From NCBI GenBank assembly GCA_024654535.1, contig JANLHL010000016.1, forward strand, positions 288,626-352,625: a DNA stretch of 64,000 nucleotides, written 5' to 3'. Origin of the DNA: Candidatus Roizmanbacteria bacterium. GTDB lineage: Bacteria > Patescibacteriota > Microgenomatia > UBA1406. Of the stretch, positions 7,110 through 53,391 are shown piece after piece; position 1 is the first letter of the stretch; each line of letters opens with the position of its first letter. A program made the position numbers and the translations under genes. Below the pieces are notes generated by a model that did not search any database, was not told where the DNA came from, and saw only the letters and a list, made by a program, of their open reading frames with translations.

Positions 7110-7150
7110 AATTCGGCACTTCACTACTCAGTGTAAACTATTTCTACTTT

Positions 7151-7209
7151 GACTTTGATATTGGATATTTGTCATTTATTTGATATTTGATATTGAGTAT
7201 TGGATATTT
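7151..7209. repeat. Intergenic TTGGATA / TTTGATATT repeat block
   Basis: GACTTTGATATTGGATATTTGTCATTTATTTGATATTTGATATTGAGTATTGGATATTT. Same motif family as 47414-47454, 49221-49310 and 52723-52797. Confidence 0.6.
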
Positions 7210-7213
7210 CTTT

Positions 7214-8203
7214 CTATATTATAAACCCCAATTTTTCTTTCACCCGTCGTACTGTCTGTTCTGCAACAATTGCTGCCTTATGGGCATTTTGTCGCATATA
7301 AATCTCAAGCGTTGTTTTGTCAGCTATATACGTTGTGTACTTCTGTTGCATCGGCTTTATTATTTCTATCAACGCCTCAGCCAATTCACTTTTGAATTCT
7401 TTGTATCCTTTACCAGAAAAATGATTTTCTATCTCTTTTTCGCTTTCTCCGGTAACAGCCTTATAGATTCCCAGCAAGTTGTAGAGCCCCAAGCGTTTTT
7501 TATCAAATTCTATCGACTTCTTCGAATCGGTAACCGCAGACATAATCTTCTTACGAATAACATCTGGTTTATCAGTTAAAAATACCGTTGCATTCAGGTT
7601 AGCATCACTTTTGCTCATCTTATTTTTTGGATCCGAAAGACTCATGATCCGCGCCGTTTCTTTCACAATACGCGCAGTAGGTAATGTAAATACTTCCCCA
7701 TACGCATTGTTGAAACGGTCTGCAATATCACGTGTTAACTCTATATGCTGCACTTGATCCTCACCAACAGGAATGATATTTGTGTGATACAGTAATATAT
7801 CAACCGCCATGAGCACAGGGTAATCATATAATCCTGCAGAGACTATTTTTGTTTGTTTTGCACTCTTTTCTTTAAACTGAGTCATACGATTTAACTCACC
7901 TAAGTGCGTAAAACAATTTAATATCCACGTTAGTTCTGTGTGTTGACGAACATGCGATTGTACAAATATATTGGACATATTTGGGTCTATGCCTATTGCC
8001 AACAACATTGCATACGTTGCATATATTGAGTCATTTAGCTTCTTTTTTTCCTGAGGTACCGTAATTGCGTGTAGATCTACGACGCAGTAGTATGCCTGAT
8101 AGTTTTTCTGCAACTCCACCCACTGTCGAAGCGCACCTAAGTAATTGCCAATATGTGGAGACTGGGCAGATGGTTGTATTCCTGAGAAAATTACTTTCTT
8201 CAT
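7214..8203 (-). CDS. trpS: Tryptophanyl-tRNA synthetase
   Basis: HIGN (HIGH-type) and KMSKS motifs, class Ic length (329 aa). TATAAT lies 6 nt before the ATG. Confidence 0.9.
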   Translation of the reverse strand: MKKVIFSGIQPSAQSPHIGNYLGALRQWVELQKNYQAYYCVVDLHAITVPQEKKKLNDSIYATYAMLLAIGIDPNMSNIFVQSHVRQHTELTWILNCFTHLGELNRMTQFKEKSAKQTKIVSAGLYDYPVLMAVDILLYHTNIIPVGEDQVQHIELTRDIADRFNNAYGEVFTLPTARIVKETARIMSLSDPKNKMSKSDANLNATVFLTDKPDVIRKKIMSAVTDSKKSIEFDKKRLGLYNLLGIYKAVTGESEKEIENHFSGKGYKEFKSELAEALIEIIKPMQQKYTTYIADKTTLEIYMRQNAHKAAIVAEQTVRRVKEKLGFII

Positions 8204-10457: not shown

Positions 10458-11153
10458 TCAATTCTGTGGTTTGTTAAGAAGTGCAGGATACACTATATCT
10501 TCATTACCTGCGGTAACGGAAATATCAGAGTCTATACTTGGTCCGAAGGAGTTACTCCATAAGATATCACCTCTCGTAGAAATTCGACCGCTTCTAACGA
10601 GTAACGAGTACATAAGTCGAACCGTAAAAGGGACCTGTTCAAAAGCCTCTGCATTCATTGGGTATACAATTGAACTCGTGAATTCTGCTTTCAAATCGGT
10701 TTCTGGGTCTACTGCTAATGCAGTACAATCTATCCTCCACAAGCCAGTATCAGGATCTCTCACATACTGCGATCCTACAACATAACCTTGTTCTGATTCG
10801 CCAGCTATTGTCAATACTTGAGCCGCAGGAGCGCGAACATGTTGCCTCTCTCTTTGTTCTACAAATATTGACCTCAATGCGCCAGTTTTATCTTGTCCTT
10901 CAGCTATTTGTAGTCTGCGCTTATCTTTACAAATAGAACCTTCTGGACGTCTATCTGTTTTAGAGCGCCAATTTAAGCCCATATCTAAACCAACTGGCAA
11001 CCTATGACTCTCGCCTAACATAGCACTGCTATAGGCATCCATATCTTGGATCGGAGGGCCAATTAGTAGATTCATTCTAGATTCAAAACCCCCAGAGTGT
11101 AAATCTATACCTGGTGGTTTGACAAAGTTTAAAATAAAGCTATCTGCGCTCAT
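10458..11153 (-). CDS. Hypothetical cytoplasmic protein, MSAD-type N-terminus (paralog family candidate)
   Basis: 231-aa ORF. The first 12 nt, ATGAGCGCAGAT, are identical to those of the gene at 15893-16609. No signal peptide. Confidence 0.6.
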   Translation of the reverse strand: MSADSFILNFVKPPGIDLHSGGFESRMNLLIGPPIQDMDAYSSAMLGESHRLPVGLDMGLNWRSKTDRRPEGSICKDKRRLQIAEGQDKTGALRSIFVEQRERQHVRAPAAQVLTIAGESEQGYVVGSQYVRDPDTGLWRIDCTALAVDPETDLKAEFTSSIVYPMNAEAFEQVPFTVRLMYSLLVRSGRISTRGDILWSNSFGPSIDSDISVTAGNEDIVYPALLNKPQN

Positions 11154-15892: not shown

Positions 15893-16609
15893 TTATAAAC
15901 TAAAATTGTATTTAGTATTTGGACTGCCAAGAGAAAGTAAGACTTGCTCTTCTTTTTTTGTAAGACAAGCATGTGGATTAAATTCTATAGCTCGTACTGC
16001 ATTTTGCATAGCTGCAAAAGCGTCCATACCATGTCTAAATAAAGAAAAATCTACAAAAACATAACTATTATCACCAAAACCTTGCTGTGCTCTATTTGTA
16101 GCAATAACTACACCAGCGCCTAAGCTCTGTTGTCCATACTCACCTGGAAGCATTGCTGAAAGGCTGCGCGCTGTTAAATTGCTAGCGCCAATAGGAATAA
16201 CGGTTCCATCTTCAGGAATGTCTTGCACCGAACCAAATATCCTAGCAAAAATATTATTTTTTGCTGTAAATCTAAACATTTCGTTGTGGTTAAATCGAAA
16301 AACTGGATGTACAGGCTTTTGCTCTGCGCGCATATCTTTTTCTACTGCACTTCGTACGTCACCTTTTTGATTACGAATCAACCAATCTTGAAATTGGTCG
16401 GCGGCGTAATCACTTTTGCCAACAAATTCTAGACACTGGTAAAGTGTTTTACAAACAAGAAAAAATGGCTTTTCATGATAGTGGCCCCATGTATATGGTT
16501 TATCTGTGGAATACGGAGTAGTGAATAATGCGACTCGCTCTTTTTGTGCTAATACGTTGCTTTTGAAATCAAAGGGGGTATGTATTTGAAATTTTGAATC
16601 TGCGCTCAT
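15893..16609 (-). CDS. Paralog-family protein (MSADS N-terminus)
   Basis: 238 aa with no signal peptide. LPGEYGQQ aligns with LPEEYGRE of the next gene. Starts ATGAGCGCAGAT. Confidence 0.65.
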   Translation of the reverse strand: MSADSKFQIHTPFDFKSNVLAQKERVALFTTPYSTDKPYTWGHYHEKPFFLVCKTLYQCLEFVGKSDYAADQFQDWLIRNQKGDVRSAVEKDMRAEQKPVHPVFRFNHNEMFRFTAKNNIFARIFGSVQDIPEDGTVIPIGASNLTARSLSAMLPGEYGQQSLGAGVVIATNRAQQGFGDNSYVFVDFSLFRHGMDAFAAMQNAVRAIEFNPHACLTKKEEQVLLSLGSPNTKYNFSL

Positions 16610-16683: not shown

Positions 16684-17370
16684 TTACGTTTTTACCAATA
16701 TCTGCTGTATTCTTTCTAATGGTGGTATTTGAATACCTGCAGTTGCTGCTCGTTGCATCGTTTCTCTACTAGTTCTTCCTGAATCAGAGCTGCCTTGCTC
16801 TATTGCTCTCCACAGTTCAAAATCTTCTTGAGTAAGTTGTCTATTCGCATTTACAATCAAAAAACTATTGCCTCCGATATTCAACATAGTAATTCTCTGG
16901 GCGTTTTCTCTACCATACTCTTCCGGCAATATAGGGACAACTGCACCCGATCTAAGTTTGCTACCACCGGTTGTCATATGCTGCACACCATAAGCACCAG
17001 TATCACTAACAGTATACAGACCAATATGTATGAGCTTGTCTGCTCCAAATATAGTGAGATATCTACCATCTTCTGAAGAATGTGAGTAGATGTATGGCTC
17101 TCTAGATTTAGCCATTCCAACAGTGATATCTCTCGTAAGCATACTCGGAAGTGGTGGTACTGAGCCTAAACAAATTGCACTATTGGCGTCCAATTTATAG
17201 ATCGGCAAGACTGGATCGTGGCTATTTACGAGTAGTTCTGTCCTATCTATAAAGTCTAAGGACGTTTTTATTCCATAGTCTGCGAGTGAAGCCGGATGAG
17301 CACGCAATATGTTATGACTTTCTGTATCCCAGTATCTAATACTATTAAATTGCCCATGATCTGCACTCAT
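16684..17370 (-). CDS. Paralog-family protein (MSADH N-terminus)
   Basis: 228 aa. Shares the N-terminal E/R-rich helix followed by H-P/S-A, and the C-terminal GIQIPPLERI motif. Confidence 0.65.
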   Translation of the reverse strand: MSADHGQFNSIRYWDTESHNILRAHPASLADYGIKTSLDFIDRTELLVNSHDPVLPIYKLDANSAICLGSVPPLPSMLTRDITVGMAKSREPYIYSHSSEDGRYLTIFGADKLIHIGLYTVSDTGAYGVQHMTTGGSKLRSGAVVPILPEEYGRENAQRITMLNIGGNSFLIVNANRQLTQEDFELWRAIEQGSSDSGRTSRETMQRAATAGIQIPPLERIQQILVKT

Positions 17371-17443: not shown

Positions 17444-18088
17444 TTATGCCAAACCCAGTGTATTAAACATTTCCAGGAGTTGCGCGCCTGTTGGAAGATG
17501 GATTTTTCGTTCTAAAAGTGATCCTCTGCTGTATTGAGCTAGTCCATCTTCATCCATCAAGTGCAATTTTGCTAGAGGTAGATTTTGTGCGGTAGGAGCA
17601 TTAATAAATATCATTGTTGAAGACTCATTAGCAACAACCAACATAGGTACAGTACCTCCTATTTCAGATACCCCTGTAGTCAAAGCAAAATCATCGGTAT
17701 GCATAAACGGTGTAATAATTGCCATAGTTGGACTATTTCCTATGGGATATTTTGGGAAAGCAAAGCCTAGCTCGTCTTTATATGTATAGATAACAGGTTT
17801 TAATTCTAATTTTGCAGTTCGTTCTGGTATATATACATGTTTAAACTGCAGATTTGGTGGTACACACCCCACAATACTTGAAGCAAATACATCATTCGGC
17901 CCATGAACCATTTTTACAACTGGCCATATACCTCTGTTTGGATTACCTCCAATGGGTAAAGCAAAACCGAAATTTGCCATCGCAGCACCTGCTGAGTGTC
18001 TTTTCAACCATTGTTTTCTCTCAGCACCGTCTAATTGCAATGGGCATGAAAAATCTGCCTTTATCTTGGAGACTTGCTCTACTGTCAT
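17444..18088 (-). CDS. Paralog-family protein (MTVEQ N-terminus)
   Basis: 214 aa. AERKQWLKRHSAGAAMANFG and a C-terminal IHLPTGAQLLEM motif. Confidence 0.65.
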   Translation of the reverse strand: MTVEQVSKIKADFSCPLQLDGAERKQWLKRHSAGAAMANFGFALPIGGNPNRGIWPVVKMVHGPNDVFASSIVGCVPPNLQFKHVYIPERTAKLELKPVIYTYKDELGFAFPKYPIGNSPTMAIITPFMHTDDFALTTGVSEIGGTVPMLVVANESSTMIFINAPTAQNLPLAKLHLMDEDGLAQYSRGSLLERKIHLPTGAQLLEMFNTLGLA

Positions 18089-18104: not shown

Positions 18105-18815
18105 TTAATGAGAATTTTTTAATACCAATCCTTGACGATCCAACACTGTAACAATTTCACTTGGCTTTGGCATTTGAATACCTCTCTCTAATGCCAATTG
18201 TCGTGCAGGTTCTAAACAACTCATCGTCTTTGGATCGACTAAAGTTTCAGCTTCGGCCTGCGTTATGCCATACTGATCTCTACATAGCACTACAATCCCT
18301 CCACCTGCACTTGCTACTACTATGAAACCATGGCTTCTCTCATATCCAAACGTTATATTGTTCCCGAAAACAACTTTGGATGCTTCTGCTTGTATACCTT
18401 CTACCTGACCAATATTAATTATTTGTGGCCCTCTTCCATTCTCTGTATAATTTACTAAAACTGAGTATTGATCTTCACCCATTGGAATATTAACTACAAT
18501 GCGACCCCATTGTTTGAATGCATATATTTGTGGTCTATCTTCCCCTCCACTGAAAGTCATAATTCTTTTTCTTGCTGAATCATACTCTGGGACACTCCCT
18601 GCTACCATGCCGCTCCAAGTTTCTCCATCTCTACGCATGCCAACGAGTGGATGAGTAGTGCCAAATGCTTTTGGCTCACCGCCAAAAGTGTATACTGGGA
18701 AACTGTATTTCGGATCTAAAGTCTCAACTGCTGGATTACTTAGTAAAAATGTTCTCCGTTCATTACTATCTAATAAACTAAAATCTACTTTACTTACTCC
18801 TTGATCTGCTGTCAT
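18105..18815 (-). CDS. Paralog-family protein (MTADQ N-terminus)
   Basis: 236 aa. SNERRTFLLSNPAVE and a C-terminal GIQMPKPSEIV motif. Confidence 0.65.
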   Translation of the reverse strand: MTADQGVSKVDFSLLDSNERRTFLLSNPAVETLDPKYSFPVYTFGGEPKAFGTTHPLVGMRRDGETWSGMVAGSVPEYDSARKRIMTFSGGEDRPQIYAFKQWGRIVVNIPMGEDQYSVLVNYTENGRGPQIINIGQVEGIQAEASKVVFGNNITFGYERSHGFIVVASAGGGIVVLCRDQYGITQAEAETLVDPKTMSCLEPARQLALERGIQMPKPSEIVTVLDRQGLVLKNSH

Positions 18816-18941: not shown

Positions 18942-19637
18942 CTAAAGAACTGGGATGTATTGACCTATACCACTTTCTAGCTGTGCAGCGGTTGGGATTT
19001 GCAAATTGTAAGCTTGGCGAAAATAAGTAAAATTTTTATCTGCTATAGCTCTTTCATAACCGGCAATATCGAGTCTTATAAATGGCAACTTTAGACCACC
19101 ACCCACTATCACAGTAGCATCTCTCATAAAAAGCATAAATAGAGCACCTATTTCTGCTCGAGCAAAATCTACATCTTTATGCTTTTTTTCTAATTGCCCT
19201 GCAATATATGCAGGATTCATAGGAGTTCCTCCATACAATATGCCAATAGATCTTTCTTTGTATCCTGACGGGAAAAAGGCAGTTACTGCACCTCGTGCAC
19301 CGCTAGAATATAGTAATGGCAATGATTGCGCTCTTGAGTAAGTATGAGCGCTTTTTATCAGTTGTAAATCCTCAGCAGTACTGATTCCGGGTAATCCTCC
19401 AAGGAGTGCTGTAGTATAGGCTCCTGTATTAGTTATGTCTTTTGTCATAATAAATACCGGGTGTTCAGATGTTATTGGTTGGCTTATAAATTCTCCATTA
19501 ACTTCTGGTATGTGAGGAGTTACGATTCCTAATGCACTCAATGAAGGACCCGCGCTGTGTTGTGCAAGCATTCGTCTTTTTTCATCTTCGCTGAGATGAC
19601 GAAATGTATGTCTACGAATGGCATCAAAATCTATCAT
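18942..19637 (-). CDS. Paralog-family protein
   Basis: 231 aa. EDEKRRMLAQHSAGPSLSALG and a C-terminal LQIPTAAQLES motif. Confidence 0.65.
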   Translation of the reverse strand: MIDFDAIRRHTFRHLSEDEKRRMLAQHSAGPSLSALGIVTPHIPEVNGEFISQPITSEHPVFIMTKDITNTGAYTTALLGGLPGISTAEDLQLIKSAHTYSRAQSLPLLYSSGARGAVTAFFPSGYKERSIGILYGGTPMNPAYIAGQLEKKHKDVDFARAEIGALFMLFMRDATVIVGGGLKLPFIRLDIAGYERAIADKNFTYFRQAYNLQIPTAAQLESGIGQYIPVL

Positions 19638-34237: not shown

Positions 34238-35164
34238 ATGAAAACAGTAACTGCCCGCCGTTTGTCATTTGCACGAGTGTTATTTATAAGTTCAATTATG
34301 CTTTTATTTGGCAGTATCAGCATTTGGATGGCTATACATTTCTTTAACAAAATAATGCCACCGCCGAAACTCAACACACCCTATTATAAAAAGACTGATC
34401 TTGTTGTTCCATACGATATTGCAAAACAGAACAAAAAAATGATGGTATACCAACCGTCATACACTATTCCCATCATAATGTATCACTATGTCGAATATGT
34501 CAAAGACCAGAATGATACTATTCGAAAAAGTCTTAGTATTACGCCAAATGTATTTGATTCTCAACTTTCAACACTCTTAGTACATGGCTATACGACATAT
34601 TTTGTCTCAGATGTACCAAAGATACTCAATGGAACCATTCCCTATACTGCAAAAAATATCGTACTGACATTTGATGACGGGTATGAAGATTTCTACACCG
34701 ACGCTTTTCCCATTTTAAAAAAAAATAACGTTAAAGCAACAGTATATGTAATTACAAACTACATCGGCCGCAAAGGTTTTTTGTCGAGTGCACAAATACA
34801 AGAGCTCGCTCAAAGCCCATTGGTTGAAATTGGCTCACACACGCTGAACCATATGTATCTCAAGGGAGGACGAGACGAGCTTGTGAATACAGAAATTGTT
34901 GAGAGTAAAAAAGTGCTCGAAAACCTTACGGGCGTTTCGGTAAAAACATTTGCATACCCCTATGGTGCGTTCGACGGCCAAGCCTTAGCAGATACACAGG
35001 AAGCAACATATTCTGCTGCAGTCTCGGTGATACCAGGAAATCAGCAGTCACTTATGAATGAATATTATCTTTCTCGAATACGAGCAGGTTCGCTTGGTAG
35101 TGGCAAATATATGATACATTTTTTAACCTCGTATTCCATAACCCCCACTCCACAAAGCTTGTGA
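34238..35164 (+). CDS. Polysaccharide deacetylase (NodB homology domain), membrane anchored
   Basis: N-terminal TM helix plus TFDDGYEDFYT and GSHT..H motifs. Confidence 0.8.
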   Translation: MKTVTARRLSFARVLFISSIMLLFGSISIWMAIHFFNKIMPPPKLNTPYYKKTDLVVPYDIAKQNKKMMVYQPSYTIPIIMYHYVEYVKDQNDTIRKSLSITPNVFDSQLSTLLVHGYTTYFVSDVPKILNGTIPYTAKNIVLTFDDGYEDFYTDAFPILKKNNVKATVYVITNYIGRKGFLSSAQIQELAQSPLVEIGSHTLNHMYLKGGRDELVNTEIVESKKVLENLTGVSVKTFAYPYGAFDGQALADTQEATYSAAVSVIPGNQQSLMNEYYLSRIRAGSLGSGKYMIHFLTSYSITPTPQSL

Positions 35165-35174
35165 TTTAATGACA

Positions 35175-35183
35175 TGATATGCT
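35175..35183 (+). promoter_or_regulatory. Extended -10 box TGATATGCT, 6 nt before the ATG at 35190
   Basis: TGnTAnnnT read directly. Confidence 0.45.
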
Positions 35184-35189
35184 AGTAGT

Positions 35190-36401
35190 ATGTACTACTT
35201 AAATCATGTATTCTCTCATGTCCGCCATTACAAAACGAAACATTCTCTACTGTACACATTAGTAACGATGATATTCTTTTGGTCAATATTTGACGCAGTA
35301 CTCAGCTATTTCATTCCAATTTTAATTATTCAGCATTCATATTCAAAAACTCAAATGGGTTTACTTATCGGTAGTTCGTCATTTTTTGGCGCTGTATTCG
35401 ATATTTTTTTTAGTAAATTTGTTAAAACCCCGCGTTTTCGTTCACTGTATATCGCGATGTTTGTACTATCAACCGCATTTTTGGTGGTTCTTTACACAGC
35501 TCATTCTATTTGGTTCTTTATTTTAGCAATGCTTTTGTGGGGAATATACTGGGATTTGTTTCATTTTGCAAATTTTGATTTTATGAGTACGATAGTCACA
35601 GAATACGAACGGCCATCTTCATTTGGGTTACTTGTAGTACTTCAGTCACTCGGGATTACTATCGCGCCACTTCTTGCAGGTTTAGTAATAGGGTCACTTA
35701 TGGGAACTGGTCCATTTGTACTGTCGCTAGGGATGTTGACGATAAGCTTTATGTTTTTTCTCAACCTATTGGCAAGTACAAGGATTGCGCATGTGGTTGT
35801 TCCAGTTGAATCTGAACGAAAAAATAATTGGCTCACAGAATTTCACTTATGGAAAAAAATTAGTCGTCGCCTTATACCCCTTCTAGTCCTCACTTTCTTT
35901 CTTTATGTTGTCGATGCTTTTTTTTGGACACTTGGTCCGCTTTTGGCACTTCAAGATAAATTTGGATCGTTCGGAGGATTTATCCTTGTTGCATACACTG
36001 TTCCATTCCTCTTTGGTGGTTTATTTTTAAAACATATTACCGTTCGCTATGAACATAGGCACATTGCATTTATCTGTTTTTCCATTGCTTCCGTACTTAT
36101 AGTACTCCTATCGACAATTGCAGCTCCGTTGTTGGTTATGGCGCTTATTTTTGCGGCTGCATTCTTTCTATCGCTCTCTCTACCGACAGTGAATGCACTC
36201 TATAGTAACTATATTGCAGATGAAAGAATGTACGAAAAAGAAATTGAGGGTCTTGCTGATTTTTTCTACAATTTGGGATGGATGATCGGACCAATTGCCG
36301 CTGGTTTATTAAGTGATGCAATCGGCATAAGTAGCAGCTTTACGGTCTTGGGTGTTATTGGTTGTATCGTTGGAATAGTACTTTTTAGAATAACGAAATA
36401 G
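35190..36401 (+). CDS. MFS-type transporter
   Basis: 403 aa with about 12 hydrophobic helices in a 6+6 arrangement around a central basic loop. Confidence 0.65.
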   Translation: MYYLNHVFSHVRHYKTKHSLLYTLVTMIFFWSIFDAVLSYFIPILIIQHSYSKTQMGLLIGSSSFFGAVFDIFFSKFVKTPRFRSLYIAMFVLSTAFLVVLYTAHSIWFFILAMLLWGIYWDLFHFANFDFMSTIVTEYERPSSFGLLVVLQSLGITIAPLLAGLVIGSLMGTGPFVLSLGMLTISFMFFLNLLASTRIAHVVVPVESERKNNWLTEFHLWKKISRRLIPLLVLTFFLYVVDAFFWTLGPLLALQDKFGSFGGFILVAYTVPFLFGGLFLKHITVRYEHRHIAFICFSIASVLIVLLSTIAAPLLVMALIFAAAFFLSLSLPTVNALYSNYIADERMYEKEIEGLADFFYNLGWMIGPIAAGLLSDAIGISSSFTVLGVIGCIVGIVLFRITK

Positions 36402-36431
36402 CCCTGTGTTCATGATATAATGACAAAACAT

Positions 36432-36503
36432 GCGACTGTAGTTCAATGGATAGAATGGAGGTTTGCGGAACCTTTGATCCCAGTTCGACTCTGGGCAGTC
36501 GCA
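36432..36503 (+). tRNA. tRNA-Arg(GCG)
   Basis: GCGACTG-TA-GTTC-AATGGATA-GAAT-G-GAGGT-TTGCGGA-ACCTT-TGAT-CCCAG-TTCGACT-CTGGG-CAGTCGC-A. No encoded CCA. Confidence 0.85.
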
Positions 36504-36514
36504 CAAAAAAACCG
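36479..36514 (+). repeat. Direct repeat copy 1 (tRNA-Arg T-arm, acceptor 3' strand and 11-nt trailer)
   Basis: CCCAGTTCGACTCTGGGCAGTCGCACAAAAAAACCG, identical to 37257-37292. Confidence 0.9.
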
Positions 36515-37256
36515 AAAAATGAATTCTGAACGAATTGCTACACCACCTGTACCTGATCTCCGTTTTGAACAGATGTCATTTGGAGATAACCAAGTTAATC
36601 TTCTGGTGTTACCAAATTCTGCCGTTCTAACGACAAGTGGTCAGAACCAGTTAAGCAATATGAATTTTGGAGCAATCGATGCACTTGTATTCCCACACAC
36701 ACCCCCTCAAGCACACAGTAAAAGTGGAACTTTATACCCAAGTTTAGCACAAATGACCTATATTACTGATCGTCCATGGATAGTGGTTGATCCTCAAGCA
36801 TCAGATGATAGTTTTTTATTATATTCTGATGGACCATTTGTTGCAGCAGCAAGTGCAACTGTTAGCAAGGTAGGTATATCAATAAAAAAAGGACATATGG
36901 GACGCAGAGATTTTCTTGGACTCAGTGCATTCTTGACGGCTAGCCTTCTTACAGCACAATGGAATTCCGGACTTATTTCTCTTCCTCCTAACGTACAAGA
37001 TTTACGGCATACAGCCATCGCATGCGGACTTAAACAACTCTATGAGCAAAATGAAAACAACCTACTCGTAGTTGTTGAGGAAGCTGATGTGAACGGCATT
37101 CAGAAGTGCTTAACGACTGAAATTCCCGATACATTAGCAAAATTTTATGCCAGATTTAATTTACATATAAAGCAGTTCAACCGTATCGTATCCCAAGATA
37201 ATAGATGGCATCTGACATCCTCTTCTCCTTTGCTTTTATCTTGAAATTTAACTTTT
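36515..37256 (+). mobile_element. 742-bp single-gene insert bracketed by the 36-bp tRNA-3'-end repeats (att-like; integrated-element remnant or cassette)
   Basis: Perfect 36-bp direct repeats, one of them within the tRNA-Arg gene. No integrase in the window. Confidence 0.4.
36519..37244 (+). CDS. Hypothetical protein carried on the tRNA-Arg-associated insert
   Basis: The first 33 codons of the track ORF 36420-37244 are a read-through of the tRNA, so the first plausible ATG is 36519 (MNSERIA). An internal MGRRDFLGLSAFLTASLL segment occurs at codon 160 of the track ORF. Confidence 0.5.
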   Translation: MNSERIATPPVPDLRFEQMSFGDNQVNLLVLPNSAVLTTSGQNQLSNMNFGAIDALVFPHTPPQAHSKSGTLYPSLAQMTYITDRPWIVVDPQASDDSFLLYSDGPFVAAASATVSKVGISIKKGHMGRRDFLGLSAFLTASLLTAQWNSGLISLPPNVQDLRHTAIACGLKQLYEQNENNLLVVVEEADVNGIQKCLTTEIPDTLAKFYARFNLHIKQFNRIVSQDNRWHLTSSSPLLLS

Positions 37257-37292
37257 CCCAGTTCGACTCTGGGCAGTCGCACAAAAAAACCG
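37257..37292 (+). repeat. Direct repeat copy 2 (orphan tRNA-Arg 3' fragment)
   Basis: Identical 36-mer to 36479-36514. It lacks the 5' two thirds of a tRNA. Confidence 0.9.
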
Positions 37293-37295
37293 CTA

Positions 37296-39029
37296 CTACC
37301 GGCACGTTCCCCCACCCGTAGCAGGAAGATACACCTTATTCGTGAGATTCCTTAAGTCTCGTGTTGGACCAGGAGTAACTTTAACACAAGTTGGCACGGG
37401 CGTTGGGGTTTCTGTGCTCGTAGCAGTAACAGTTGGAGTAGCTGAAGGTAAAGGTGTTGGCGTATACATTGTAAGATTACCTGTACATTCGTCAAATTGG
37501 TCATCTACCCCAGTAATATCGCCCTGATTACCAGAAAATGCTAAATCTATAGTATACGGCCCATTTCCAAGCGATATTTGGTCTATGTTTAGCGGAAATG
37601 CATACGGATTCCATCCTTCTTGGTCATCGTATGGGTGTATCTGTTCGAAAACCATTTTTTTATACACATCGTACACTCGTACCACAAGGGATCTATTTGA
37701 GGGGTAGTTATCACCATTTATGAATCCAAAACGACCAAATAAATAGTACTGTTTACCTGGATACAAATACATACCTTCTATAGTAATAGAGCCATCTCCG
37801 TGTTCTGTCGGTGAGTAAAAACCAAATTGGGTTTCAGGATTTCCAGCAAGAGACCATTGGACATTCCCTTTAGAAGTAATTGGGCCAAGATTCATAGCTT
37901 TACAGCTGCTCTGGTCGTATCCAGGAACGGGTGTTACCGTAGGAACTCCGGCTGTTGATGTTGGCCGTGGCGTAGCTGTTGATGGTATTTGGGTAGGCGT
38001 ACTTATTGGTATTTCTGGTGTCACCGTTGTAGTAGGTGTTCTCGTGGGGGTATACTGGCTCGTTGGCGTTCTTGTTGGAATAACAGTTGGAGTCCTCGGA
38101 GTCGCTGTAGCGGCAGTTTGTGTAGGCGTTCTTGAAGGAGTTATAGTACTTGTAAACGTTGGAGATTGCGTTGCTGTCGCAGTAGGAGTCGGTACTAGCT
38201 GCGGTGCATCAATAACAAGATTTTGTAGTTTCCATTCAGCACCCGTATTGTGAGTGCTAATTGTAACCATAATTGCCGAAACAGCATCTGGTCCTGGGAC
38301 TATGCCAACTGACTTTAAATCGGCCAAAAGAGATTGCGTCATAGTAGCTATATCAATAGTTTCATGCCCTGTCTCTAAAGGAACAGAGGCCCAGTATGAT
38401 GTATCTTCTTCTGGGGTTGCACCGGGAACTGCGACAACTATTCCAAATTCCAAATATCCCGAGTTTGTATCGTTAACCGTATCGGTCTGTACAGTAAATG
38501 GTTTCATACTAAAAATATCTGTTGCGTTAATTGGGTCACTAAAAAACCCAGAAACAAACGAATAAATTATGGATGGATCTGGATTTTTTCTCATTTGTAC
38601 CGAAACTTCTTGTGTACAATTTGGATTATCGTTAATAGATACAGAATAATCGACTCCATCTGGTGCATTTGAAGACTCACCATTTTCTGAAACGTGGTAA
38701 TTAGTAAGTAAATGGTATATATCACCTTGTGCCGAATGTATCCGTTTATCTATGAGCATACTACTGTCGGGTCTTCTTACTCCTGTGTCTTCATACTGAT
38801 CCATTTCTATAAATTCATGACCAAGCATTACTCCGCTACAGGCTGGTGTTTCAGGTTGAGTAGATTGCATATCATTTGCAGCATAGGCGACCAAATTCCC
38901 TGTAGTAAGTGCCATGAGCAAAGCTGCAGCTGCGCCATACCGAGTAACGCCGGTACGAAGACTATCCGGCAACCAACGCGGTAATAGTGATCCCTTCACC
39001 CTTGACCCACATTGTCCTTCTTTATACAT
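37296..39029 (-). CDS. Secreted surface protein with long Pro/Thr-rich linkers
   Basis: N-terminal signal/anchor (AAAALLMALTTGNLVAYA), two globular regions separated by TPT/PTx linkers, and an ending ...VYLPATGGGTCR. Confidence 0.6.
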   Translation of the reverse strand: MYKEGQCGSRVKGSLLPRWLPDSLRTGVTRYGAAAALLMALTTGNLVAYAANDMQSTQPETPACSGVMLGHEFIEMDQYEDTGVRRPDSSMLIDKRIHSAQGDIYHLLTNYHVSENGESSNAPDGVDYSVSINDNPNCTQEVSVQMRKNPDPSIIYSFVSGFFSDPINATDIFSMKPFTVQTDTVNDTNSGYLEFGIVVAVPGATPEEDTSYWASVPLETGHETIDIATMTQSLLADLKSVGIVPGPDAVSAIMVTISTHNTGAEWKLQNLVIDAPQLVPTPTATATQSPTFTSTITPSRTPTQTAATATPRTPTVIPTRTPTSQYTPTRTPTTTVTPEIPISTPTQIPSTATPRPTSTAGVPTVTPVPGYDQSSCKAMNLGPITSKGNVQWSLAGNPETQFGFYSPTEHGDGSITIEGMYLYPGKQYYLFGRFGFINGDNYPSNRSLVVRVYDVYKKMVFEQIHPYDDQEGWNPYAFPLNIDQISLGNGPYTIDLAFSGNQGDITGVDDQFDECTGNLTMYTPTPLPSATPTVTATSTETPTPVPTCVKVTPGPTRDLRNLTNKVYLPATGGGTCR

Positions 39030-39103: not shown

Positions 39104-39970
39104 TTACAAAAGTGCTTCAGGAATGTGTGAAACGTACAAATCACCCAGTACCTGCTCTGGATTATTTCTTGTGCTTGATTTCATATTTCTTTGAAATAGT
39201 GAAGATAGCATGACCATGATTTTCGCTTCTTGCAGATGATAATCAACGAAATTGAGAAATTGTACTATATCTGCTTCACTTCTATTACGTTGCTGGGCTC
39301 CATCAAAATTTCCAACTACATGGGCAACAAGCCCCTGATACTCTTGGTACTGTAGATTTTGCATTCTGCTACCAGAATTGCATTCTTTAGCTTTTTGTGC
39401 AAGCATTTTTCTTATATTATTTTCTATAGAATGTGCAGCAAAAAAACCAACCGCAGTATCGTCCATACCGACGAGTCCACGCACCCTCTCTTTTTTTATG
39501 ATCTGTAATGTTCCGTCTATAAATCCATCCATCACCCCTAAAGTATTCTCTTGTTCACGTAATCCTAACACTGTTGATGATCTATCAGAAATATCTTCAA
39601 CAAGATGCTGCACTACTGATCTATGCAACTGAGTTGTAAATGTGCGACTTACTGTATGCCTCTTTGGAACAGTTCGCCTATCCAAAACTACAGACTCGCT
39701 CAATCGAAGTGCGGTCAATAGTGTATCACTATTAGCTTTCGACCAATCCACGCTGAAATAACTGGGAGGTTCTCCAAAAGCAGGGCTATAGCCCGATATG
39801 CATCTTGCTCCAGGTGCCGTGTCTGCCTGTGCTGCTAAATATCGCCGTAGCTCTGGCGTTTCATTTACCAGTGCTGGGAATCCAACACAACCTAGAACTG
39901 CCATTGAAAATTCCTGATCTGACAGGTAATGCGGTTTAAGAGGTTCAATTTCAGGTCTATACATACTCAT
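39104..39970 (-). CDS. Hypothetical protein
   Basis: The track start at 39979 is TTG and abuts the -10 box. The ATG at 39970 (MSMYRPE) lies 8 nt after TGATATAAT. No domain recognised. Confidence 0.5.
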   Translation of the reverse strand: MSMYRPEIEPLKPHYLSDQEFSMAVLGCVGFPALVNETPELRRYLAAQADTAPGARCISGYSPAFGEPPSYFSVDWSKANSDTLLTALRLSESVVLDRRTVPKRHTVSRTFTTQLHRSVVQHLVEDISDRSSTVLGLREQENTLGVMDGFIDGTLQIIKKERVRGLVGMDDTAVGFFAAHSIENNIRKMLAQKAKECNSGSRMQNLQYQEYQGLVAHVVGNFDGAQQRNRSEADIVQFLNFVDYHLQEAKIMVMLSSLFQRNMKSSTRNNPEQVLGDLYVSHIPEALL

Positions 39971-40046
39971 TACGTGCAATTATATCAATATTATAGGCTA
40001 TTCTCAATCAGAATATACTCTTAATAATGTCACTATAGTTCGATAT

Positions 40047-40553
40047 TTAAAACGACTTTTCTATTGTGTAATAGGAGAACGAGACAGTGCTTTCTTTCCC
40101 TTCCTCTACATGAGTGACTTTCAAGAATTGGCTATAGTCTGGGAAATAGACATCTGCTTCGGCCGTTGCATTTACTATTGTTAAGTATAATCTATCGAGA
40201 ATCGGCATCGCCTTTGCGAAAATTGCTGCTCCGCCAATTATGAAAATTTCTTTTTTTTCATCTAAAGTCGCCTCCTCTAAGGCTTCCTCGAGTGAGTGAA
40301 CCACGACTACTCCTGTTGGGTGATACTCTGCATTTCGGGTAATGACTATATTTTTGCGCCCAGGTAGCGGTTTTCCTATGGATTCATATGTTTTTCTACC
40401 CATGATTATGGGGTGACCCATGGTGATTTCTTTAAAACGTTTCAAATCAGAAGATATACGCCAGATAAGTTGATTATTCTTCCCCAGTTCCCTATTTTTA
40501 CCTATGGCGGCGACTGCGCTTATCGTTGGTTTCATAATGTTATTCTTGGACAT
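40047..40553 (-). CDS. folA: Dihydrofolate reductase
   Basis: ISAVAAIGKNRELG, GRKTYESIG and IIGGAAIF motifs. Directly downstream of thyA. Confidence 0.9.
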   Translation of the reverse strand: MSKNNIMKPTISAVAAIGKNRELGKNNQLIWRISSDLKRFKEITMGHPIIMGRKTYESIGKPLPGRKNIVITRNAEYHPTGVVVVHSLEEALEEATLDEKKEIFIIGGAAIFAKAMPILDRLYLTIVNATAEADVYFPDYSQFLKVTHVEEGKESTVSFSYYTIEKSF

Positions 40554-40594: not shown

Positions 40595-41551
40595 TTATTC
40601 CTTTTTGTAATAGCCACCTGCTACTGTAAGTTTTGCTTTAATGGGCGGGTACGGGTTATATCCTTCAACGACTATATCTTCCGGCTTGATAGTATCTATT
40701 GTCTTTGCTGTGCCTGTTATGGAAAGTTTTGGAAATGCGCGTGGTTTTCGTGCAATCTGCTTTTTTACTTGCTCTATATGATTCTCATATACATGTACAT
40801 CACCGAACGTATGCACAAACTCTCCCACTTCATACCCGGTTACATAGGCAATTAGGTGAGTTAACAGTGCATAGCTTGCTATATTAAACGGTACACCTAG
40901 AAATAAATCTGCGCTGCGCTGATAGAGCTGTAAACACACCTTACCATTCATCACGTTCAGCTGGAACATATTGTGGCAAATGGGAAAGTACGAAGTGTCT
41001 TCTTGGCGGGCCATTGTATATAAATACTCCGGATTCCATGAATTCACAATAGCGTTATGCGCATTTGGGTCTTCTACTATTTCGTTTATAGCCCATGAAA
41101 GCTGGTCTATTGTCTTGCCATGTTTCGTTGGCCAGTGTCTCCATAACTCTCCATAAATCCTGGGCAATTCTCCCCATTTTTCAGCAAAAGCATCATCTGT
41201 TCGTATTTTCTCGACAAACTCTTCTTTGGATATTGGATATTGGTTATTGGGTATTTGTTGATATATCTTATAGGGATAATCGTCCCAAATGTGTACATCG
41301 TGGTCGACAAGATATTTGATATTTGAATATCCTTTCATAAACCAAAAAAGCTCATACAACACACCCTTCCAATACACTTTTTTTGTGGTGAGCAATGGAA
41401 ATCCCTGCGATAAATCAAAGCGGATTTGACGACCAAACAAGCTATATGAAGCAACCCCTGTGCCACGATCCACTTTGCGAATACCTGTATCGAGCGCTTC
41501 TTGTAAAAGATTTAAATACTGCCGCTCTGGATGAAAAACCATAGTATACAT
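40595..41551 (-). CDS. thyA: Thymidylate synthase (ThyA, long form)
   Basis: Catalytic Cys context FPICHNMFQ, DLFLGVPFNIASY, and a Lactobacillus-type long insert (DDAFAEKWGELP). Confidence 0.9.
   Translation of the reverse strand: MYTMVFHPERQYLNLLQEALDTGIRKVDRGTGVASYSLFGRQIRFDLSQGFPLLTTKKVYWKGVLYELFWFMKGYSNIKYLVDHDVHIWDDYPYKIYQQIPNNQYPISKEEFVEKIRTDDAFAEKWGELPRIYGELWRHWPTKHGKTIDQLSWAINEIVEDPNAHNAIVNSWNPEYLYTMARQEDTSYFPICHNMFQLNVMNGKVCLQLYQRSADLFLGVPFNIASYALLTHLIAYVTGYEVGEFVHTFGDVHVYENHIEQVKKQIARKPRAFPKLSITGTAKTIDTIKPEDIVVEGYNPYPPIKAKLTVAGGYYKKE
41226..41253. repeat. TTGGATA-type heptamer array inside the thyA coding sequence
   Basis: TTGGATA-TTGGATA-TTGGTTA-TTGGGTA on the plus strand, antisense to thyA codons for IPNNQYPIS. 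Confidence 0.6.
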
Positions 41552-42130: not shown

Positions 42131-42766
42131 TTATTCTAGAAGTTTCAACATTTGAATGTATGGTAAAAAATACTCCGGATAAAGATCGTCTCTTTGTTCT
42201 TGAATGAGATATCCCATATTTTCTATCCCACAATCTCTACTTATGTTCTCAGTCATAATTGACACAGCATTGCCAAGATTCTGTACTCCAAGTAACGCAT
42301 GGGGGAATAGAACCCCAATACCTAGTTCTCCAGATGTTCTATAAGCCCCTCTTAATGAACAATGAGCATGTGCTGTTTCTGGAGGATGCATAAAATCAGT
42401 TGGCAAAAATAAATCATGTCGCAAAGCTGTATTTAACCACTGAGTAGCTTGTGAAGCCCTACCCCATATTTCTTGTAATTCGCCATGTCTCTGCATATAC
42501 CATTCCATTATTAGGATCATTGCGGTCAGTTGATCACCTTGTCTAGTAAATGTATCTACAATTTTTTCTCCTTGAAAGTTATTTACTGTTGATTTCTGAG
42601 GTGTGTTTGTTCCCACTCTTTGTCGTAGTAATTCAAGTTCTCTGTTTAATATATCTCCCTCTAATCCCAGCTTATATTGTAAATATATCGCTTGGAATTC
42701 ATTACTTGTTCGTAATAAGTGAGCTAAAATTGCATCAGGGGTAGGGAAACAACTTTCCGCTGTCAT
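42131..42766 (-). CDS. Hypothetical protein (MTAES N-terminus)
   Basis: The track start at 42862 is TTG. The first ATG gives MTAESCFPTPD (ATGACAGCGGAA), resembling the MTADQ starts. Confidence 0.5.
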   Translation of the reverse strand: MTAESCFPTPDAILAHLLRTSNEFQAIYLQYKLGLEGDILNRELELLRQRVGTNTPQKSTVNNFQGEKIVDTFTRQGDQLTAMILIMEWYMQRHGELQEIWGRASQATQWLNTALRHDLFLPTDFMHPPETAHAHCSLRGAYRTSGELGIGVLFPHALLGVQNLGNAVSIMTENISRDCGIENMGYLIQEQRDDLYPEYFLPYIQMLKLLE

Positions 42767-42922
42767 AATACTGTTTTCATTACTTTTAAAAATATCAACC
42801 AGTTCTCTTCTTCTGTTCCCTCGCGGAAACAAGCATGCAAATAGAAATTTCTTTGATAACAACCGGATAAATGCATCACAAACCTATTTTATGCGCATTT
42901 TTTCACATGTCAAGCAATCCGC

Positions 42923-44224: not shown

Positions 44225-45001
44225 TCAATGCCCATTACCATTACCTGTCCCTAGATTCCAACCTCTCGCAGCAAGTTTATCCTTTAGAGTATCTGCTATC
44301 CCCCATCTTTCTAAATCCGGATAAAATCCCGTAACCGTATTAAGTGCCCACTCTTTTGCCGTTATCATACGTCTCTGAGTAGCAAATCTACGCTTCATTT
44401 CAGGTTGCCAGTTAACTATCAAATCAGCTAAATCTTCATAATGCGCTTGTTCGCCCATTCCTCCACCCAATTCCCATGTATAGTTAAACCCCATTTTTTG
44501 TGCTAATGCAAGCATTGCAGCATGACCTTCATTTAGCGTCACTCCAATATATAGCCTTTCCCTAAACCTTCCGTCATATGCCCTGGTCATGAAAGCCCTA
44601 CTTTGAGCCATTGCCATAAGTTGTTCACCTACACCCATTCTTCTAAGCTCGTCATCTGTAACAAAATACCCTAGCCAATGTTCGTGCTCACTCCCTTTGC
44701 CGTCAGTAATAGAAGCTGCTGCAATGACCTCTCCGGTGGTTGGGTGAGTTGCTGTAACTACTTGTATCTTGTCAGTTGTTGCAATTCGTACCATATCTTC
44801 ATCACTTTCTGGAGGATTTGCAAATCTGTGGACACTACTTGGGTGAGTTAATAAACGGGTTACACCTCTAATTTGATGCATATCGGGTTGTTGGTGATCT
44901 ATAACATGAAAATCAGTCAAAGATAATGGGAGCTTATGTTCCGGGACAAGTAATCTATTTGGGTTAGGCAAAAGCACCTGAGCGCTGTCATCTACAGTCA
45001 T
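44225..45001 (-). CDS. GNAT-family N-acetyltransferase with an N-terminal extension
   Basis: RRMGVGEQLMAMAQ is the GNAT motif A (R/Q-x-x-G-x-G/A). N-terminus is MTVDD. Confidence 0.6.
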   Translation of the reverse strand: MTVDDSAQVLLPNPNRLLVPEHKLPLSLTDFHVIDHQQPDMHQIRGVTRLLTHPSSVHRFANPPESDEDMVRIATTDKIQVVTATHPTTGEVIAAASITDGKGSEHEHWLGYFVTDDELRRMGVGEQLMAMAQSRAFMTRAYDGRFRERLYIGVTLNEGHAAMLALAQKMGFNYTWELGGGMGEQAHYEDLADLIVNWQPEMKRRFATQRRMITAKEWALNTVTGFYPDLERWGIADTLKDKLAARGWNLGTGNGNGH

Positions 45002-47289: not shown

Positions 47290-47413
47290 AAAATAAGTAT
47301 ACAGCACGTGCACTTTTTAAAGCGAGCTTATACAAGAAAGTGTGCGGGGAAATCCTAATATCAAATAAGGTTCCAGAGCCCTATGACAAATTTCAAAGTT
47401 GGGCATTTGAATT

Positions 47414-47454
47414 TTGACATTTATTTGACATTGGATATTGGATATTGGATATTT
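47414..47454 (+). repeat. TTGACAT-TTATTTGACA followed by TTGGATA x3 heptamer array
   Basis: TTGACATTTATTTGACATTGGATATTGGATATTGGATATTT read directly. Confidence 0.7.
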
Positions 47455-47459
47455 TTTAA

Positions 47460-47468
47460 TGGTATACT
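47460..47468 (+). promoter_or_regulatory. Extended -10 box TGGTATACT, 6 nt before the ATG at 47475
   Basis: TGnTATACT read directly. Confidence 0.5.
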
Positions 47469-47474
47469 ATCTAT

Positions 47475-48041
47475 ATGCTCCTCTCAGACATAGATATAGA
47501 ACGAGCCCTCAATGACAAAAGTATTGTCATAAAGCCCACGCCCAATCTTTCCCACGCACTCTCTGCATGCGCACTTGATTTACGGCTGAATAATATTTTT
47601 GAGGTTTTTGAATATTCAAAAATGCCCTACTTTGATCCTAAGAATGCTGAACAGGAATTAGCTATGAAAAGAATCACCATTTCTAAAGATGATTTCTTTG
47701 TATTACAACCAGGAGAGTTTGCGCTTGCCTCAACGTTAGAGTGGGTCGAACTCCCTTATAATATTGCGGCACGATTAGAAGGTAGATCTTCTTTAGGCAG
47801 GCTTGGTATAGTAGTTCACTCCACTGCTGCACTTATACATCCGGGAATGAGAGGTAACATCGTACTTGAATTAGGTAATCATTCTCGTATGCCTGTTGCA
47901 CTGTACCCCGGGATGCGCGTATGTTCGCTTTCATTCGAACAACTGACGCAACCTGCTCAAAGACCATATCATCTTCAAAAAAATGCAAAGTATGCTCAGC
48001 AAAAAGGCGTTGAAAAAAGTAGAATACAGGACGAAGACTAG
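47475..48041 (+). CDS. dcd: dCTP deaminase
   Basis: 188 aa. MLLSDIDI start, LDLRLNN, and a GRSSLGRLGI-type motif typical of Dcd. Confidence 0.85.
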   Translation: MLLSDIDIERALNDKSIVIKPTPNLSHALSACALDLRLNNIFEVFEYSKMPYFDPKNAEQELAMKRITISKDDFFVLQPGEFALASTLEWVELPYNIAARLEGRSSLGRLGIVVHSTAALIHPGMRGNIVLELGNHSRMPVALYPGMRVCSLSFEQLTQPAQRPYHLQKNAKYAQQKGVEKSRIQDED

Positions 48042-49101: not shown

Positions 49102-49220
49102 GATATTAGAATACCAAATAAACTCAAATAACCAATATCCAATAAATGCCAAAGTTCAAAGGACAAATGTCAATTGAAGTTCCAAATCCAAATGCCAAAA
49201 TAAGACAGGATTTTATCTTT

Positions 49221-49310
49221 TGTCATTGGGATTTTGACATATATTTGACACTGTATATTGGAACTTTGACATTTCATTCTAGTTGGATATTGGATATTTG
49301 ACATTGGATA
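49221..49310. repeat. Intergenic block of TTTGACA and TTGGATA repeats
   Basis: TTTTGACATATATTTGACACTG...CTTTGACATTTC...TTGGATATTGGATATTTGACATTGGATATTTG. Reverse-oriented degenerate copies occur at 49160-49200. Confidence 0.65.
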
Positions 49311-49329
49311 TTTGTTTATACTATACCCC

Positions 49330-52722: not shown

Positions 52723-52797
52723 TATCCAAGTTCAAATGTCAAATAGCAGAATTGGACATTGGAATTTTGATATTCATTGGATATTGGATATTGGATA
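52723..52797. repeat. TTGACA/TTGGATA repeat block with both orientations present
   Basis: The left part carries reverse-oriented TATCCAA and TGTCAA. The right part is TTGGACATTGGAATTTTGATATTCA-TTGGATA x3. Confidence 0.65.
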
Positions 52798-52800
52798 TTT

Positions 52801-53391
52801 CTACAGTACCAAAACCCCTATGACTCCTAGTGCAATAAGGCTGAACGCTACAATACCAAATGTCCATTGACCCCCAAAGCCTGTTTGTACAATTGCTGTC
52901 GGGGTAGGAGTATTGGTAACTACTGCAGGCGGAGTAGTCGGCACCGGAGTAGCGGTCGCAACGGGAGGTGTAGGCGTTGGTGTAGTTACCGGTGCAACAG
53001 TACAAAGCTCAGTAGAACCTGGTCCTGAGGCAATCAGTTTGAATTTAACTTTTGCAAACGTACCAGTGCCCGATTTTGCTGAAAGGTTCGTACCCGTGAG
53101 TGTCACAACCGTAGCGCTTGGACTTGCCGAAACACTGTTGAAAAAATCTCCAGGTGTCGTCGATACGTACTGCAAATACTGAGTATCAAATGTCACCGCA
53201 GCAGCCCCATCGGTAAGCGCCTGTCCCTGTGTATCGACTGTAATTGTCCATTCATACTCCTGCCCATTCACCACCTGCCCAGACGGGCCTGTGATACCGT
53301 AATACACAGCCTGTGCAGAAGTGCAAAAAAATACGAGCGAAATCGCTATAAACAAACCAAATATACATAAACTCCGTCTGATATATTCCAT
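52801..53391 (-). CDS. Cohesin-domain-like secreted protein with a PT linker and C-terminal TM anchor
   Basis: Signal peptide (LCIFGLFIAISLVFFCTSAQA) and a cohesin-like beta-domain pattern (AAAVTFDTQYLQYVSTTPGDFF...GTGTFAKVKFKLIASG). The TPTPTPP linker precedes the hydrophobic C-terminus. Confidence 0.55.
   Translation of the reverse strand: MEYIRRSLCIFGLFIAISLVFFCTSAQAVYYGITGPSGQVVNGQEYEWTITVDTQGQALTDGAAAVTFDTQYLQYVSTTPGDFFNSVSASPSATVVTLTGTNLSAKSGTGTFAKVKFKLIASGPGSTELCTVAPVTTPTPTPPVATATPVPTTPPAVVTNTPTPTAIVQTGFGGQWTFGIVAFSLIALGVIGVLVL

Follow-up and report, generated by a model that had tools for sequence, protein, structure and literature searches.

This study concerns a 64-kb stretch of DNA (the window) inside a 356,648-bp contig of a Candidatus Roizmanbacteria metagenome-assembled genome (MAG; locus tags NUV65_*). 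Within it lies a 778-bp unit behind an intact tRNA-Arg gene, made up of one open reading frame (ORF) of 241 codons, ORF241, and one 37-bp repeat that duplicates the tRNA 3' end. Because sister species have the same site without ORF241, sequence comparison proves that the unit is a real insertion or deletion at a variable tRNA-linked slot. The explanation that we favor, and to which we give about an even chance, is an integrase-less, att-flanked one-gene unit that arose by reciprocal recombination at a tRNA T-loop site and was moved in trans, much like a cis-mobilizable element (CIME). As it stands, the locus belongs to a known category, that of integrase-less att-flanked remnants at tRNA hotspots; its minimal one-gene size and its dependence on a tRNA promoter are less common traits. 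The features of the locus are listed by window position.

36413 to 36421, plus strand: extended -10 box TGATATAAT, read from the sequence and ending 10 nt before the tRNA start; presumed promoter of tRNA-Arg
36432 to 36504, plus strand: intact tRNA-Arg gene, anticodon GCG, CCA not encoded (ARAGORN, 36432 to 36503/4; Rfam RF00005, 63.8 bits)
36478 to 36514, plus strand: repeat copy 1, attL-like; T-arm, acceptor 3' strand, discriminator, and trailer CAAAAAAACCG
36519 to 37244, plus strand: ORF241 (NCBI MCR4329453.1, NUV65_02820), 241 codons plus stop
37256 to 37292, plus strand: repeat copy 2, attR-like; partial tRNA-Arg 3' end with no 5' half
37296 to 39029, minus strand: ORF577, convergent, Pro/Thr-rich, with a hydrophobic N-terminal segment, presumed secreted; stop codon 3 nt from copy 2
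39104 to 39979, minus strand: ORF291, an orphan specific to the slot of the window and not in loci L009, L013, and L015 to L024 of relatives (see below)
40047 to 40553, minus strand: dihydrofolate reductase (DHFR) gene folA, the conserved right border of the slot, followed by thyA

The repeat is exact and is anchored in the tRNA gene. A first-pass annotation of the window had reported a perfect 36-mer, with its first copy formed by the T-arm, acceptor 3' strand, and 11-nt trailer of tRNA-Arg, and both observations held. The 36-mer is present exactly twice, at 36479 to 36514 and 37257 to 37292, with 0 mismatches, and 0/100 dinucleotide-preserving shuffles of the sequence gave a match; identity runs 1 base further left, so that the full repeat is 37 bp (36478 to 36514 and 37256 to 37292, 100% identical). 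ARAGORN and Rfam agree on the tRNA. Copy 1 comprises 1 nt of the variable loop, the T-arm CCCAG-TTCGACT-CTGGG, the acceptor strand CAGTCGC, the discriminator A, and the 11-nt trailer CAAAAAAACCG, past which the sequence on the ORF241 side reads AAAAATGAATTC. Copy 2 is entered from the ORF241 side by ...AAATTTAACTTT, and the sequence beyond it is CTACTACCGG. Outside the 37 bp, the flanks of the two copies have no significant similarity, and no third, degenerate copy was found anywhere in the window. A decayed att copy was also sought in the ORF577/ORF291 and ORF291/DHFR spacers and behind the occupants of the corresponding slot in L013 and L012, with only non-significant 7-mer T-loop matches as a result. 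The two 7-mers, AGTTCGA in the window (~40036 to 40042; p ~0.08) and GTTCAAC in L013 (~1301 to 1307; p ~0.12), each lie by the DHFR stop codon and match the T-loop variant of their own genome; neither is significant alone, and as a pair they may be weak traces of earlier att copies.

Syntenic loci were gathered by scanning metagenome contigs with the 25-mer of the tRNA 3' end and by look-ups of DHFR relatives. The interval between tRNA-Arg and DHFR is occupied as follows.

Window: ORF241, repeat copy 2, ORF577, and ORF291; ~3.5 kb
L009: empty, with the MFS gene, tRNA-Arg, and then convergent DHFR directly; 80 to 86% nucleotide identity to the window
L015, L016, and L017 (three independent assemblies of species Roizmanbacteria CG10_big_fil_rev_8_21_14_0_10_39): only ORF558, a 49% ortholog of ORF577; ThyA 89%, MFS 85%, and DHFR 80% identical to the window
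L013: only ORF245 (protein P0002), a 38 to 39% homolog of ORF241, 17 nt after the tRNA; more distant (ThyA 83%, DHFR 56%)
L010: empty, with tRNA-Arg and then DHFR; more distant
L012: a ribbon-helix-helix (RHH)-PIN toxin-antitoxin gene pair (L012 9750 to 10470, minus strand); more distant

Judged across these loci, the tRNA-Arg-DHFR interval is a small hypervariable slot of 0 to 3.5 kb. The tRNA-Arg gene itself is nearly identical across L009 to L013 and L015 to L017, and DHFR adjoins the tRNA or the ORF245 gene in L009, L010, and L013. L009 is syntenic with the window over 34370 to 36512 and again from 40140, leaving 3.5 kb of the window missing in L009. The left border of the slot is sharp, with sequences diverging ~9 nt after the tRNA end in five close genomes (window copies, L009, L013, and L015). 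An empty site, which the first-pass annotation had proposed to look for in related genomes, was found in L015, L016, and L017, where nothing separates tRNA-Arg and its trailer (CAAAAAATGA) from the 3'-terminal stop codon of the ORF577 ortholog, an arrangement colinear with the copy 2 flank. In the alignment, L015 corresponds to the left side of the window's attL joined to the right side of its attR; the C-termini of window ORF577 (...GGGTCR-stop) and L015 ORF558 (...GGGSCQ-stop) are colinear within 4 nt, and the right flank of copy 2 is orthologous to the sequence after the intact tRNA in L015 and L017. Orthologs of ORF577, 49% identical, lie flush to tRNA-Arg in L015 to L024, and we regard ORF577 as the older resident of the slot. 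The proposed one-gene insert was thus correct in that ORF241 is the sole gene between the repeat copies, and incomplete in that it is one occupant of a 3.5-kb variable slot that also holds ORF577 and ORF291. ORF291 had no family, phage, or viral-contig match.

The homolog of ORF241 in L013 stands behind the same tRNA-Arg with a different right neighbor, and no tRNA repeat was found behind the occupants of L013 (7-mer match only, p ~0.12) or L012. A rough tree built from protein identities places the genomes as ((window, L009), L015), L013, and conserved proteins of the sister species differ by 8 to 27%. Since copy 2 has no 5' half, cannot act as a tRNA, and is nevertheless still 37/37 identical to copy 1, the duplication appears much younger than the splits between the sister species. 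The arrangement with the repeat is, on this comparison, neither conserved nor ancient. A universally conserved arrangement with diverged repeats had been named beforehand as an observation that would refute the integration reading; the loci instead show a variable arrangement, and the repeats are identical.

Other contexts added less. In GTDB genomes, MFS-gene synteny yielded only relatives of ≤48% identity, with their tRNA-Arg located elsewhere, and the contexts of distant DHFR proteins (P0007, P0013, P0017, and P0023) differ in synteny and are uninformative for the slot. Two further genes near the slot are either fast-evolving or variable. ORF243 (42131 to 42862) is not in the aligned part of L009 and is 51% identical in L015, and the GNAT-family ORF258 (44225 to 45001) is 45 to 57% identical in sister species whose ThyA is ~90% identical.

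ORF241 fills nearly the whole insert, with 4 nt ahead of it and 11 to 12 nt behind it, as had been noted from the sequence. A word-indexed search of 5.8 billion proteins returned only the ORF241 protein itself. A full HMMER scan of 1.84 billion representatives returned two homologs only, P0002 (245 amino acids [aa], 39% identity, full length) and P0003 (261 aa, 27%), and a subsequent profile search found no further homologs beyond these two. The three proteins have 36 invariant columns in common. Because two homologs share these columns, we take ORF241 to be a real gene in a very rare family; full-length or near-full-length homologs with 36 invariant columns rule out a spurious ORF. Conserved in all three are a D-[LM]-R motif and an RRD-x-L motif (RRDFLxL...QW), the latter leading into a hydrophobic helix that closes with QW; the central segment RRDFLxL...QW of ORF241 looks like a single hydrophobic helix. 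No matches to ORF241 were obtained in Pfam, PHROG, NCBIfam, PADLOC, the PDB sequence profile search, phage tblastn, or viral contigs. A weak TAT_signal match (E = 0.19) was set aside, as it covers the internal RRDFL and hydrophobic segment and no signal peptide. An AlphaFold2 model from the 3-sequence alignment was uninformative (pLDDT 42).

Expression of ORF241 probably depends on the tRNA gene. In a survey of 42 gene starts of the window, a Shine-Dalgarno-like motif preceded only one gene (1/42), ORF241 being among those without one, and a TATAAT box lay within ~15 nt of the start codon in many of the 42, which suggests that leaderless or short-leader mRNAs are widespread in this Roizmanbacteria genome. 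The 14 nt ahead of the ORF241 ATG consist of the tRNA trailer plus AAAA and contain no -10 box. The nearest promoter-like element upstream, and the only one, is TGATATAAT, ahead of the tRNA; no terminator-like site was found between this element and ORF241, nor in the region around copy 2. Given that ORF241 has no promoter of its own and that no terminator-like site intervenes, we infer that it is transcribed from the tRNA promoter as a tRNA-mRNA co-transcript, with tRNA 3' processing setting the 5' end of the mRNA. With read-through from the tRNA promoter and a cut at the tRNA 3' end, the mRNA would carry a leader of 14 nt. A TATAAT-then-tRNA layout is also present in L013, L009, and L015, and in L013 this layout lies ahead of the ORF241 homolog. 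The family member in L014 (P0003) lies at a locus with no tRNA nearby and has its own TATAAT box.

In the integrase-less unit that we favor, a circular copy carrying the same 37-mer would have recombined with the 3' end of the chromosomal tRNA-Arg(GCG) in one reciprocal crossover. The likely crossover site is the T-arm, with 5-bp inverted arms CCCAG/CTGGG around a 7-nt T-loop; 5-bp inverted arms around a 7-nt spacer are the classic core layout of tRNA-integrating tyrosine recombinases, and an identity block running from the T-stem past the tRNA end is usual for integrases that use the T-loop sublocation. Such a crossover would restore a complete tRNA on the left (attL-like) and shift the pre-existing T-arm, acceptor strand, and trailer rightward by 778 bp, together with the adjoining ORF577 (attR-like). 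This reading follows from the intact tRNA-Arg at the left end and its partial copy at the right end, the identity block starting from the T-stem, and the empty site in relatives. It is further favored by the sharp left border of the slot together with its varied occupants (empty, ORF245, ORF558, and RHH-PIN), by a second occupant of the ORF24x family behind the same tRNA in L013, by the apparent recency of the duplication, and by the promoterless state of ORF241. Because the unit has no recombinase, its behavior would be CIME-like: a recombinase may act in trans, as the product of another gene of the genome or of a related element or as a host tyrosine recombinase, and RecA could also have driven the event through the 37 bp of identity. 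The unit would thus function as a CIME or as the remnant of a cargo-only island. CIMEs and remnants flanked by partial tRNAs are documented (PMC5704250; bioRxiv 10.1101/2020.12.28.424599).

Several observations weigh against this explanation. The first-pass annotation had found no integrase or other mobility gene in the insert, and our survey of the insert and the whole 64 kb likewise turned up no integrase, transposase, or other recombinase; for it, all ORFs of at least 150 aa were read by eye, and 20 without obvious function were passed to a Pfam scan, in which none matched a recombinase family. CIMEs usually carry a decayed mobility gene; none is present in this unit, where only 15 bases are non-coding and there is no room for a remnant. 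Neither a circular junction nor a second copy of the unit was found, and the tRNA 25-mer scan had 0 hits among viral contigs, while the 4 metagenome contigs that it returned had the 25-mer once each and lacked ORF241. Searches of phage, viral, and metagenome sequences found no related elements. Composition rules out a recognizably foreign origin: ORF241 has z-scores against the host of -0.02 for codon-choice likelihood, -1.1 for GC3, and -0.2 for GC, and ORF241, ORF577, and ORF291 are all host-like in GC, GC3, and codon choice (|z| ~1.3 or less). The L013 homolog, 38% identical and without a repeat, is compatible with vertical descent of a fast-evolving gene linked to this tRNA all along; the two genomes share 56% identity in DHFR and 83% in ThyA. 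The repeat's right boundary also says little, since 9/11 trailer bases are conserved across the genus anyway. The view of ORF241 as foreign cargo accordingly fares poorly, given its host-like codons and a homolog that occupies the same position in L013 without a repeat.

The main rival, which we consider possible but rather unlikely, is allele displacement by homology-facilitated illegitimate recombination (HFIR), with no site-specific recombinase. Here ORF24x would be a native tRNA-linked gene, and conspecific DNA of the form tRNA-Arg-ORF241 would have entered a strain of the form tRNA-Arg-ORF577-ORF291. Homology over the MFS gene plus the tRNA would anchor one end, with the other joined illegitimately, 11 nt past the ORF241 stop, to the recipient T-arm, so that the old allele is pushed downstream with a fragment of the anchor, as in T6SS (type VI secretion system) orphan immunity arrays. 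Both HFIR and displacement arrays are documented (PMC3240628, PMC5361080). This route accommodates the host-like codon usage of ORF241, the 64 kb free of integrase genes, and the L013 homolog in the same slot, with no repeat and a divergence compatible with vertical descent; the leaders from trailer to ATG are, moreover, homologous between the window and L013. Copy 2 would then be a duplicated 3' fragment of the anchor between ORF241 and the displaced ORF577, which is the older slot resident and a resident gene in the sister species. However, the illegitimate joint would share only 1 nt of microhomology (T at 37256/36478) between flanks that otherwise lack significant similarity, and by chance it would have to fall exactly at the first base before the T-stem. 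The sharp left border common to five genomes also fits a defined recombination site better. The 'attL/attR' wording of the first-pass annotation, which read the duplication as the classic footprint of site-specific integration into a tRNA 3' end, stands as a reasonable reading on its geometry and on the empty site, but an integrase-free homologous plus illegitimate route gives the same footprint. The new kind of tRNA-targeted cassette suggested there may be real but is not demonstrated by this footprint.

Three further alternatives bear on the repeat and on ORF241 itself. An ancient, vertically inherited arrangement in which the repeat is functional, for example as a processing or stability element for two convergent transcripts, with identity kept by selection or gene conversion and with L015 and L009 as deletion derivatives, appears improbable to us. 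ORF24x does adjoin tRNA-Arg in two lineages, and recombination between the repeats would give exactly the L015 state; yet no relative carries the repeat, L013 included, copy 2 has no complementary 5' acceptor strand nearby, no terminator-like feature was found in the region, and a recent event is the simpler explanation for perfect identity across 37 bp that include 2 non-conserved bases of the trailer. An assembly artefact, through the merging of strain variants or the threading of a free circular 778-bp molecule into an empty site at the 37-mer, seems to us decidedly improbable. The locus comes from a MAG and a single contig record, exact-sequence look-ups of ORF241, DHFR, and MFS found no other assembly of the window strain on record, and related species do co-occur in samples (L009 with L019 in JGI 3300025150; L012 with L018 in JGI 3300004210). 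Against this, a junction between the ORF241 end and the T-arm must exist in real reads for an assembler to return to the 37-mer, a repeat of 37 bp is normally spanned, since common read lengths and the larger k-mers exceed it, and the circle variant would still imply a real mobile unit sharing the att sequence. Finally, it is very hard to credit that ORF241 is itself a new minimal recombinase inserting its own gene at the tRNA-Arg T-arm, as a self-mobile one-gene element. That idea draws on its position as the sole gene between the repeats, on the tRNA that adjoins family members in 2/3 cases, and on a conserved stretch, D-[LM]-R-H-T-x-[IV]-A-x-G-L, which we presume to resemble, superficially, box II of tyrosine recombinases. 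It is opposed by the lack of any match to recombinase families or solved structures, by a spacing of the conserved arginines (R130 to R163) far too short for the tyrosine-recombinase fold, by the central hydrophobic helix, which suggests a membrane protein, by the third homolog with no tRNA nearby, and by an AlphaFold2 model that provides no support at its low pLDDT.

A broader extension of the integrase-less unit, which we offer as speculation with little probability, is that single promoterless genes are swapped at the tRNA-Arg 3' end in Roizmanbacteria, and perhaps in other bacteria of the Candidate Phyla Radiation (CPR), in an integron-like manner. One-gene circles carrying the T-arm/trailer site would be inserted and removed by a chromosomal recombinase acting in trans, and their genes would be read from the tRNA promoter and converted by tRNA 3' processing into short-leader mRNAs; the slot states (empty, ORF24x, ORF577, and RHH-PIN) would be the output of such a system. 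Genomes of CPR bacteria are tiny, and few mobile elements from them have been characterized. Irrespective of mechanism, the locus is a clean, dated example of the turnover of a single accessory gene beside a tRNA, with occupied, empty, and alternatively occupied states in sister species. Should a recombinase acting in trans lie behind it, the locus would represent a minimal route of cassette exchange in the CPR group and a protein gene whose expression comes only through a tRNA co-transcript; should HFIR lie behind it, the locus would document transformation-type allele displacement anchored on a tRNA.

The window holds other features of interest outside the slot. At 21907 to 22097, a complete tRNA-Pro(CGG) (21966 to 22042) lies inside a 115-nt insertion that splits the anticodon loop of a second tRNA-Pro(CGG). 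The outer halves (21908 to 21944 and 22060 to 22097) have their own compensating acceptor stem, CGGGATG/CATCCCG versus CGGGGAT/ATCCCCG in the inner gene, and fold into a perfect cloverleaf when joined; the ends of the insertion can pair as GCCTGCC/GGCAGGC. This nested arrangement could be the footprint of recombination at an anticodon loop, a disrupted pseudogene, or an unusual intron. A set of six tandem minus-strand genes of ~215 to 240 aa between 10458 and 19637 (10458 to 11153, 15893 to 16609, 16684 to 17370, 17444 to 18088, 18105 to 18815, and 18942 to 19637) may be paralogs; 4/6 start with MSAD or MTAD/MTVE, most have low GC3, and the three scanned (10458 to 11153, 15893 to 16609, and 18942 to 19637) had no Pfam match. 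A TTGGATATTGGATATT-type repeat with units of ~7 to 8 nt occurs in both orientations at 7138 to 7216, 41226 to 41263, 47383 to 47475, 49203 to 49320, and 52736 to 52807 (families D1, D2, and I1 to I5), and a similar motif is located between DHFR and thyA in L009. This repeat may be regulatory or related to replication.

Among known systems, islands and prophages integrated at tRNA genes by a tyrosine integrase resemble the ORF241 unit in their tRNA 3' direct repeats, in the intact tRNA at one end, and in the unoccupied attB of relatives; they differ in that the unit has no integrase gene near att and a composition not unlike that of its host. CIMEs are defined by the retention of attL and attR without genes for integration or transfer, and can be moved only by the recombinase of another element (PMC5704250). 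Those found in streptococcal tandems made up of ICEs (integrative and conjugative elements) and IMEs (integrative and mobilizable elements) likewise have attL and attR at a target gene's 3' end (the target often being a tRNA gene), with no mobility genes inside. However, they are decayed ICEs or IMEs of several kilobases that usually hold gene remnants, whereas the unit described here measures 778 bp, holds a single intact, host-like gene, and lacks remnants; it has no known cognate ICE or IME, and its host is a CPR bacterium. In the tycheposon islands of Prochlorococcus, successive occupants have partial tRNAs between them, and each new arrival displaces the earlier ones farther from the tRNA (bioRxiv 10.1101/2020.12.28.424599). 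The slot is similar in being a variable island by a tRNA with a partial tRNA copy between occupants, and cargo-only remnants are a further likeness; tycheposon islands, however, hold recognizable tyrosine-recombinase elements within the population, whereas none was seen for this slot, which is tiny at 0 to 3.5 kb.

The T6SS orphan immunity arrays (PMC5361080) offer a parallel of a different kind, in which a new allele arrives by a conserved anchor and the old allele is shifted downstream behind a duplicated 3' fragment of that anchor; in our case a tRNA gene, not a protein-coding one, provides the anchor, and the putative joint has only 1 nt of microhomology. Integron gene cassettes share with the unit a single promoterless ORF that nearly fills it, one recombination site, and a fixed external promoter. 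In contrast to integrons, there is one unit only and no array, the repeat is a tRNA 3' end with no attC-type imperfect palindrome, and no intI/attI/Pc platform is adjacent. IMEX elements, which use the host XerCD at dif, are comparable in having no recombinase of their own, in relying on a host tyrosine recombinase, and in being flanked by the site and its copy, with the difference that the target here is the T-arm and trailer of a tRNA instead of dif.

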